Positions 1,169 to 3,137 of a DNA stretch of 45,476 nt are shown one piece after another (the first letter of the stretch is position 1; each line of letters opens with the position of its first letter). The position numbers and the translations under genes were made by a program. The DNA lies in sequence record PQ429079.1. One strand, written 5' to 3'. Source of the stretch: Escherichia phage vB_VIPECOTPH05A. The notes beneath the pieces are model-generated. The model did not search any database and was not told the DNA's origin. It saw nothing but the letters and a program-made list of their open reading frames with translations.

Positions 1169-1435
1169 TCACCCCACTACCTCATCGCCAAGCCACGCCG
1201 TTTCTCGTATATCACCGACCACACACGCGGCGTGCTCACGGCTAATTGCAAAAATGTAGAAGCTAAACTTCTTCCCGTCGGCGTCGATGTGGTTAACCGA
1301 GTAGGGTTTCCACAGGACGCCATCAATTACTACTGGCTTAGGCGACTCCATACGCTTCACCACATTTAATGCACGTGGCTCGATGTAACCCGCCAACCAC
1401 ATGTAAGTAGTAGTCATGCGCACAAGGCTTTTCAC
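1169..1435 (-). CDS. hypothetical protein
   Basis: 88-aa ORF with globular-looking sequence (VVIDGVLWKPYSVNHIDADGKKFSFYIFAISREHAACVVGD); overlaps 3' end of ORF 1338..1817 in another frame. Confidence 0.45.
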   Translation of the reverse strand: MKSLVRMTTTYMWLAGYIEPRALNVVKRMESPKPVVIDGVLWKPYSVNHIDADGKKFSFYIFAISREHAACVVGDIRETAWLGDEVVG

Positions 1436-1817
1436 CCTCTTTCAACTTATCAAGCAACAACTTAAATGCCTCCAGTTGAAACTCACCGTTAATCGACAGT
1501 TGCCCGCTTAACGTCTGTTTCTCCGGCTCAAGCACCAGAATACGGCGCTCGAGTGACGCGATTGTGATTTTAGGCATTATTCGGCCCCCCCCCTCATAAA
1601 AATCTCCATTTCGGTAATCCCCATCGAAATCGTCAGAAATAGCGCACCCCTTGTTCAGGTTGAAGCGGTTAATCAGTTCACGGCGAGTCTCGTAAAGCGA
1701 CTCTACCATTTGCTCCGCTACTGCGATTTTAGTATTCAGGACGTGCATCACGTGGCTTACGTCTACGCCGCCGTTAACGGCCTCTACCATCATCTTTTCG
1801 TATTCACGGTCAGTCAT
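1338..1817 (-). CDS. hypothetical protein (contains G9 homopolymer; may be two genes)
   Basis: 159-aa ORF; a 9-nt G run (plus-strand C9 at 1585-1593) lies in frame and also resembles an SD for an internal start MPKITIAS. Confidence 0.35.
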   Translation of the reverse strand: MTDREYEKMMVEAVNGGVDVSHVMHVLNTKIAVAEQMVESLYETRRELINRFNLNKGCAISDDFDGDYRNGDFYEGGGRIMPKITIASLERRILVLEPEKQTLSGQLSINGEFQLEAFKLLLDKLKEGEKPCAHDYYLHVVGGLHRATCIKCGEAYGVA

Positions 1818-2335: not shown

Positions 2336-2364
2336 AATATAATAGGTGTCAGAGTAATAGTCAA
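2336..2364 (-). promoter_or_regulatory. sigma70-like promoter (TTGACT-N17-TATATT)
   Basis: -35 at 2359-2364 and -10 at 2336-2341 on minus strand, upstream of ORF 2115..2303. Confidence 0.45.
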
Positions 2365-2382
2365 CTAGTCATTACAGAAAAT

Positions 2383-2418
2383 AGATAAAAAAAATCCCGG
2401 CTGGGTCAGGGCCGGGAG
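2383..2418 (-). terminator. rho-independent terminator
   Basis: GC stem TCCCGGC...GCCGGGA followed on minus strand by a U8 run (plus A8 at 2386-2393). Confidence 0.6.
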
Positions 2419-2488
2419 AAACAGAGAGCAGAGGGATGATACAGGAGGTTGGAGAAACCAGTATGCCTTTAGCGCCTGGTGCCGTCAA

Positions 2489-2526
2489 TGGGCAAAATAA
2501 AACCCGGATTCGCGGTCCGGGTTTCA
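2489..2526 (-). terminator. rho-independent terminator
   Basis: stem AAACCCGGA/TCCGGGTTT followed on minus strand by UUAUUUUG; lies downstream of the lysis cassette. Confidence 0.55.
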
Positions 2527-2562
2527 GGGTGGTGCAAGCACAAACAGCGTAGGGTAATTATA

Positions 2563-2655
2563 TCAACGGCCTTTCAACCCGTCAAAGCATCCCCAGAAGG
2601 CCCCAACCACCGCGCCAGCACCGATAGCCAATAAGATGAAATCAATCTCTGTCAT
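2563..2655 (-). CDS. 30-aa hydrophobic peptide (possible lysis accessory)
   Basis: MTEIDFILLAIGAGAVVGAFWGCFDGLKGR; start overlaps endolysin stop (ATGA); below ORF-track size cutoff. Confidence 0.3.
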   Translation of the reverse strand: MTEIDFILLAIGAGAVVGAFWGCFDGLKGR

Positions 2656-3137
2656 TTAACAGCCCTCCCGATAGCAACCGCCTCTTGCCACGGTTTACCG
2701 TCGAACAGTGCCAGACGCCCGGCGGTACGTCGGCGCAGTCCAAGTAACGGTTTACCATTCTGGTTGATGAACAGTGCCAGCTTAGCCCGTAGCGTCTGCG
2801 CATCACCAGCGCGCAGCGCCTTACCCGTTCCGGTAGTAGCTGCGATTACGCCAGCGCCCGCGTTAAACACCAGGTCGCACACCGCATCGAACTGACCCTG
2901 CGTCAGCGAGTGATGCGCTGCGGCGTCAACGGCAGATACGGCCTTAGCCATGTCACGATTGAGTAACAGGAGGCCCTGACCTGGCGTGATGGTCTGCCCT
3001 GGCTTAACATCAGCACCGTAATGCCCGTAGCCTATAGTCAGGTACTTCTCGTCCGGCGTAGCGCGATACGCAGTTCCGCGGAAGCCCTCGAACGCAGCGC
3101 AGAAATGCAGTCCATTATCTGAAATATTTCGAGACAC
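2652..3137 (-). CDS. endolysin, GH24 (T4/lambda-type) lysozyme
   Basis: catalytic pattern E..D..T in FEGFRGTAYRATPDEKYLTIGYGHY; likely GTG start at 3137 with GGAGG RBS 8 nt upstream; ORF track gives 2652..3188. Confidence 0.8.
   Translation of the reverse strand: MSRNISDNGLHFCAAFEGFRGTAYRATPDEKYLTIGYGHYGADVKPGQTITPGQGLLLLNRDMAKAVSAVDAAAHHSLTQGQFDAVCDLVFNAGAGVIAATTGTGKALRAGDAQTLRAKLALFINQNGKPLLGLRRRTAGRLALFDGKPWQEAVAIGRAVK

Follow-up and report, generated by a model that had tools for sequence, protein, structure and literature searches.

A nine-base G run that probably arose by private expansion of a Shine-Dalgarno sequence joins two small genes of Escherichia phage vB_VIPECOTPH05A

The genome of Escherichia phage vB_VIPECOTPH05A contains a run of nine consecutive G residues (C9 on the plus strand) at positions 1585..1593, inside an open reading frame of 159 aa that is read from the minus strand (1338..1817). 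We consider it probable that this tract is a real mutation, private to the isolate, in which a run of five G residues embedded in a Shine-Dalgarno sequence was extended by four and thereby fused two small phage genes. On comparison with related phages, the tract looks like an ordinary isolate-specific change and not like a conserved regulatory device.

The window, by which we mean the whole stretch of DNA that was analysed (45,476 nt, sequence record PQ429079.1), is the complete genome of this phage. Genome-wide nucleotide similarity and synteny place it in the genus Kagunavirus (Guernseyvirinae), with about 93% nucleotide identity to the phages vB_VIPECOMC04 and vB_EcoS_fFiEco02 over 84-99% of each half. 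Searches of E. coli chromosomes and prophages returned no match to the window, which indicates that the region is not prophage-derived. The phage has been named 'Kagunavirus malou' (GenBank PQ429079, 45,476 bp, 50.9% GC) and originates from hospital wastewater that was enriched on the clinical strain E. coli OMCS-21-1589B (PMC12060664). It was sequenced on an Illumina MiSeq instrument (2x251), assembled with SPAdes and polished with Pilon at 157x coverage; the same lysate contained a second phage, an unrelated Drulisvirus of 44,015 bp (PMC12060664). An exact look-up of the 159-aa protein led to a single contig, SRR30791125_94 of the Logan assemblies (45,506 bp), which stems from the same sequencing run. 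This contig is 30 nt longer than the window and wraps around its ends, an overhang of the kind expected when a circular assembly is closed with a k-1 overlap.

The run, which an earlier note on this DNA had reported inside ORF 1338..1817, can be read directly in the sequence. On the minus strand the tract stands as ...gat ttt tat gaG GGG GGG GGc cga ata ATG cct aaa..., with its G residues extending from 1593 down to 1585, and the reading frame across it encodes ...DFYEGGGRIMPKITIAS.... It is the longest homopolymer of the genome, followed by an A8 run at 2387-2394. Runs of G or C in the window number 26 at length 5 and two at length 6, there are none at lengths 7 and 8, and a single one has length 9; in two complete relatives the maximum is 6. 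Dinucleotide-preserving shuffles of the window nevertheless contained a G9 or C9 run in 10 of 100 cases (mean 0.14 per shuffle), so that we dropped chance expectation as a proof of significance. Composition is thus not decisive, and the case for a meaningful run rests on the comparison with relatives. A G-quadruplex at the tract was also considered and rejected, since a lone G run cannot fold into one. As for the A8 run (T8 on the minus strand), it is A9 in fFiEco02 and A8 in vB_VIPECOMC04, and it lies in an intergenic position between two sigma-70-like promoter matches ahead of the cluster of small genes to which the fused ORF belongs.

The 159-aa ORF is composed of two genes that were ancestrally separate, as indicated by the ORF list, by the protein families matched by its halves and by the two coding sequences present in relatives. 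Residues 1-57 match the family phrog_1402 (E=2.8e-22), whereas residues 81-159 match phrog_9023 (E=4.2e-37) over profile positions 2-81 of 81; the two families occur separately elsewhere, which identifies the ORF as a fusion of independent families. Both are listed in PHROG as of unknown function. A Pfam search with both halves gave no match, and a PDB sequence search with both halves gave no credible match, the best E-value being 0.13. The upstream module (phrog_1402) occupies 1578..1817 on the minus strand; in relatives, this gene ends as ...FYEGAE* at a TAA that corresponds to positions 1579-1577 of the window and that lies here in another frame. The downstream gene (phrog_9023, 1338..1577, minus strand), delimited by the profile match and by the coding sequences of relatives, encodes 79 aa starting with MPKITIAS and retains its own ATG at 1577-1575. 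We would therefore annotate the 159-aa ORF as two genes that a private frameshift has joined, and not as a new protein family.

Within the downstream protein, the N-terminal portion of about 42 aa is conserved, with the segment M81-L122 nearly invariant across 43 homologues (MPKITIASLERRILVLESEKQTLGGQLSINGEFQLEAFKLLL), and the C-terminal part contains a C-x-H...C-x2-C motif. The conserved head (MPKITIASLERRILVLESEKQTLGGQLSINGEFQLEAFKLLL) is joined to several unrelated C-terminal modules across phages (homologues P0004-P0081), a pattern that looks like module swapping within a family whose constant part is an adaptor or a coiled-coil head. For the fusion, AlphaFold gave a model of low confidence (mean pLDDT 61.4, pTM 0.33). 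In this model, helical modules flank residues 50-82, a segment with pLDDT below 50 that includes the glycines encoded by the tract; the upstream module is modelled, at the same low confidence, as a helical hairpin that runs into a disordered tail. Such an arrangement would fit, as a tentative reading of a weak model, a flexible linker at residues 50-82 between two independently folding parts.

The junction between the two genes is the point at which the window departs from its relatives. In phage fBC-Eco01, the genes gp073 and gp074 are two coding sequences of 237 nt and 240 nt that share one base (584-820 and 820-1059 of the extracted locus); BUCT789 has the same arrangement, with products of 78 aa and 79 aa in these relatives, and phage G AB-2017 also carries both genes as separate coding sequences. 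The junction of relatives reads GAG GGG GCC GAA TAA or GAG GGA GCA/GCC GAA TAA, giving ...FYEGAE*, and the stop of the upstream gene overlaps the ATG of the downstream gene as TAATG. Among isolates, IMG/VR contigs and metagenomes, some 25 related sequences share this type of junction, carry either GAGGGGGCC or GAGGGAGCN and are always 4 nt shorter than the window; no intermediate tract length was present among them. This holds for 14 of 14 phage records that span the site, each exactly 4 nt shorter. A pattern scan that kept the conserved flanks and let the tract vary from 0 to 14 nt recovered the short form in all IMG/VR contigs (n=5) and all metagenome contigs (n=5), and it returned nothing from GTDB genomes. 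A looser pattern added a single match, a chance occurrence in an unrelated AT-rich contig of 129 kb.

Over 875 nt, the closest local relative (a contig from IMG/VR) matches the window at 98.3% identity, and the sole gap in the alignment is the 4-nt insertion in the tract. The comparison of tract length among related phages, which the earlier note had proposed as a check, consequently separates G9 from all of the roughly 25 sequences with the same junction type. Since no relative with this junction type carries the long tract, G9 is a change that arose recently in the lineage of vB_VIPECOTPH05A, derived by the addition of four G residues to an ancestral G5 run (GAGGGGGCC). All 11 fetched loci with this tail translate to ...FYEGAE*, and they vary at synonymous positions only (GGG/GGA and GCC/GCA), as would be expected if purifying selection maintained the split frame. 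With regard to the upstream gene at large (window 1578-1660; loci L001-L016), a conserved core (...RRELINRFNLNK) is followed in relatives by C-terminal tails of at least four kinds, namely GDTNA*, GCAISDDFDGDYRNGDFYEGAE*, PSPTNDSFDGYFYEGAE* and CEHEFDYNPKDM(Y/C)GQCIKCGVQRHA*. The G tract is thus situated in a hypervariable segment that is bordered on either side by highly conserved DNA.

The ancestral run is also part of a translation signal. The 3' end of the upstream gene contains the Shine-Dalgarno sequence for the downstream one (GAGGGGG..., 1585..1595, minus strand), and the 3' edge of the run is positioned 7 nt before the ATG. The duplex predicted with the 3' end of the 16S rRNA has an energy of -11.4 kcal/mol for G5 and of -11.9 kcal/mol for G9, and each of the 11 relatives with this tail has GGGAG or GGGGG at the same distance of 7 nt from the ATG. 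These results support the proposal that the run acts as a Shine-Dalgarno-like element for an in-frame internal start at MPKITIAS: pairing with the anti-Shine-Dalgarno sequence is predicted, the motif is shared by the relatives, and the ATG is their annotated start. Because both the downstream ATG and its Shine-Dalgarno sequence are intact in the G9 form, the 79-aa protein is probably still translated on its own, in addition to being part of the fusion.

In order to see what each tract length would encode, the products were computed. Lengths of G5, G8 and G11 give split genes, with an upstream protein that ends as ...E-G(n)-A-E*, whereas G6 and G9 give the fusion. At G4, G7 and G10 the upstream protein ends as ...PNNA* at a TAA located 5 nt into the downstream gene, a stop geometry that is also that of the fFiEco02-type phages (...GDTNA*). 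The expectation that loss or gain of a single G would end the protein a few codons later is thereby confirmed at the level of translation, with G8 leading to ...YEGGAE* and G10 to ...YEGGGPNNA*. Every tract length thus produces at worst a short changed tail or a fusion, so that a stepwise walk from G5 to G9 would avoid gross truncation.

From these observations we propose the following origin. The upstream gene of the ancestor would have ended in GAG GGG GCC GAA TAA, with its G5 run doubling as the ribosome-binding site of the phrog_9023 gene. Replication slippage may then have extended G5 to G9, probably in several steps; intermediate lengths need not have been lethal if both genes are dispensable, and the fusion itself is presumably tolerated. 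The stepwise route is what we infer, because a single slip of +4 in a G5 run is mechanistically unlikely; intermediates do not occur in the relatives. The net gain of four bases shifts the frame by +1: the upstream protein loses its last two residues and its stop, and the reading frame continues across Gly-Gly-Gly-Arg-Ile into the downstream protein, which is included in full. The result is the 159-aa fusion with a linker predicted to be disordered. Once present, a G9 run would be expected to yield variants of G8 and G10 at low level in any lysate. The locus may serve as a small and clean example of how a G run that belongs to a Shine-Dalgarno sequence at the end of an upstream gene can expand, become prone to slippage and fuse neighbouring genes.

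It has to be weighed whether the extra G residues exist in the phage at all. The earlier note had allowed for a sequencing artefact, under which the true phage would be split (G5 or G8) and the consensus would contain a homopolymer miscall. Such an explanation could draw on the fact that G9 is a singleton among about 25 related sequences, that the published and the Logan assembly share one library, and that this library was of modest quality, with only 183,193 of 1,377,052 reads (13%) surviving cleaning (PMC12060664). Set against this, a change from G5 to G9 amounts to +4 and is well above the usual miscount of one base, and the published assembly was polished with Pilon at 157x. The Logan contig, which was built by another (de Bruijn) assembler from the same run, is 100% identical over 6,480 nt including G9. 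MiSeq instruments use four-colour chemistry and are free of the poly-G dark-cycle artefact, which we rejected for this reason and on account of the authentic sequence found on both sides of the run. We know of no Illumina error mode that produces a +4 miscall of a G5 run. A homopolymer-error signature was sought with a genome-wide catalogue of indels and a tblastn frame test against two complete relatives, and none was found: no other conserved ORF of at least 60 aa is frameshifted relative to PQ423993 or MT711523, and the other indels sit in divergent stretches. The cases flagged in the frame test could be traced to antisense ORFs, to paralogous HNH genes or to sites ahead of start codons. 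Altogether, the platform is not an error-prone one, the two assemblers agree on G9 and no further conserved ORF of this size is shifted, and an artefact is therefore unlikely.

Provided that the tract is real, it could be more than a private expansion. The suggestion of a slippage-prone switch between a fused and a split gene arrangement was well founded in one respect, as the tract sits exactly where the fused form differs from the split one; the part of it that implies an evolved switch is not supported, as all relatives with this junction type have the same short length. An evolved or selected contingency locus would use G9 to toggle two accessory genes reversibly between the fused and the split state as a form of population bet-hedging, for example by evading a host defence that recognises one of the proteins, with selection taking place during enrichment on OMCS-21-1589B. 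Nine nucleotides is the length of the A9 contingency locus demonstrated experimentally in the agt gene of phage T2, and repeats of at least 6 nt are over-represented in hypothetical and regulatory phage genes (PMC12633550). The phage was enriched on a clinical isolate, the genes sit in a promoter-proximal cluster of small accessory ORFs, and a change in unit number does alter the reading frame, with the mild products in all three frames computed above. The comparative evidence runs the other way. Tract length does not vary among the relatives (14 phage records, 5 IMG/VR contigs and 5 metagenome contigs), all of which lack the long form, and an expanded run was seen in no other isolate, so that the locus fails the comparison on which a contingency function would depend. 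The sister phage isolated on the same host has a different junction without a run. Neither gene has a known phenotype, and hypermutability is a by-product of run length and does not attest to selection. The tract would be slippage-prone as a physical consequence of its length, and there is no sign in the compared sequences that this property was selected. We accordingly regard an evolved contingency locus as very unlikely. About as doubtful, in our judgement, is the specific version in which a working locus arose under selection on the clinical host, with slippage among G8, G9 and G10 reversibly fusing and separating early accessory proteins and so altering or masking the upstream C-terminus, for instance to evade defence.

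The comparison with established systems illustrates what is shared and what differs. For the A9 run in T2 agt and the A6 run in T4 rIIA, experiments gave rates of mutation and reversion about 1,000 to 10,000 times that of point mutations, together with a fitness trade-off, and simple-sequence repeats of at least 6 nt are common in coliphages (Gomez, Barrick and Waters, bioRxiv 2025; PMC12633550). Like these loci, the present tract is a mononucleotide run inside a phage ORF in which a change of one base shifts the frame; it has the 9-nt length of the T2 agt run and, as with many of the repeats in that study, it lies within a gene of unknown function. Unlike them, it is known from sequence alone, while their rates were measured; it consists of G and not of A, it is private to one isolate, and its present state fuses two genes rather than inactivating one. 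PolyG tracts of Campylobacter Fletchervirus phages have been reported to create phenotypic diversity and to aid the evasion of bacterial resistance, according to the work of Sorensen et al. (2021, Cell Rep 35:109214) as cited in PMC10877375. The tract described here resembles them as a poly-G run in a phage coding sequence that is able to shift the frame. Fletchervirus tracts recur in the receptor-binding genes of that phage group, whereas ours was found in a single E. coli siphophage, within small accessory genes. The closest counterparts are the TAATG junctions of fBC-Eco01 (gp073/gp074) and BUCT789, which have the same locus, genes and ATG and a Shine-Dalgarno sequence 7 nt upstream; the difference consists of the four extra G residues in the Shine-Dalgarno run, which put the upstream stop out of frame and fuse the ORFs. 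To our knowledge, contingency loci of phages act as on/off switches, and a fusion/fission switch has not been described among them. Reads containing a mixture of G8, G9 and G10 with an effect on fitness would add a fusion/fission type to these loci, but no result obtained here points to such a type.

A programmed recoding event would offer yet another way to obtain both arrangements, and from a single genotype. In this case the G run would cause RNA polymerase to slip or ribosomes to shift frame, which would set a fixed ratio of fused to separate products. The fused and the terminated outcomes are one base apart, and, with nothing but G in the run, tRNA-Gly or the nascent RNA would find a perfect match in whichever register it re-pairs. 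Recoding sites, however, are conserved, and here neither the slippery tract nor the fusion product is present in any relative with this junction type; relatives make both proteins from ordinary overlapping genes, and the other proteins that span both halves stem from different, private junctions. We hold programmed recoding to be extremely improbable, and the preferred reading remains that of a private expansion of the G5 run.

Those other proteins came from a search of 5.8 billion proteins, in which three sequences besides the one studied here cover both halves (P0001, P0002 and P0003). P0002 and P0003 are deletion fusions. P0001 (134 aa) belongs to another Kagunavirus lineage and joins a phrog_1402-type gene in frame to the MPKITIAS gene; it was found in contig DAJKTB010000024.1 of GCA_025471175.1 and in the Logan assembly of SRR20168592 (loci L018 and L019, the latter at 800-815). 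Its junction (aaaggtggcccaATG) is 1 nt shorter than usual, has no homopolymer and follows a different variant of the upstream tail. When this junction was compared with 96 phage isolates covering at least 80% of it, the full-length matches listed were all 1 nt longer, with two genes where annotated, which suggests that the P0001 fusion is private too. The G9 fusion and P0001 thus involve the same pair of genes and are both private, but they are independent of each other, and P0001 arose without a homopolymer. Other neighbouring small genes of the cluster also appear fused in raw assemblies, as represented by P0007, P0008 and P0009 from ENA and Logan contigs, which join the MPKITIAS gene to the next gene (phrog_10509 type) or a DUF2737 gene to the phrog_1402 gene. 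Judging from the assemblies, fusions in this cluster seem to arise sporadically and are not seen to spread, a behaviour that fits neutral to mildly deleterious events.

The cluster of small ORFs sits between the endolysin gene and the gene of the small terminase subunit. Upstream of it on the minus strand (2336..2585), two sigma-70-like promoter matches are located at 2585-2557 and 2364-2336; they are identified by consensus only, with 11 of 12 positions and an extended -10 in one and 10 of 12 positions in the other, and host promoters are annotated at the equivalent place in fBC-Eco01. The genes of the cluster are thus probably accessory genes that are transcribed by the host polymerase. A further G run at a gene junction was observed in this phage group: an IMG/VR Kagunavirus contig (L009) carries a G7 run at 3033-3039, at the extreme end of the small terminase gene and just before the next ATG (CCGGGGGGGTGAGTAATG), and the gene that follows is, by synteny, probably that of the large terminase subunit.
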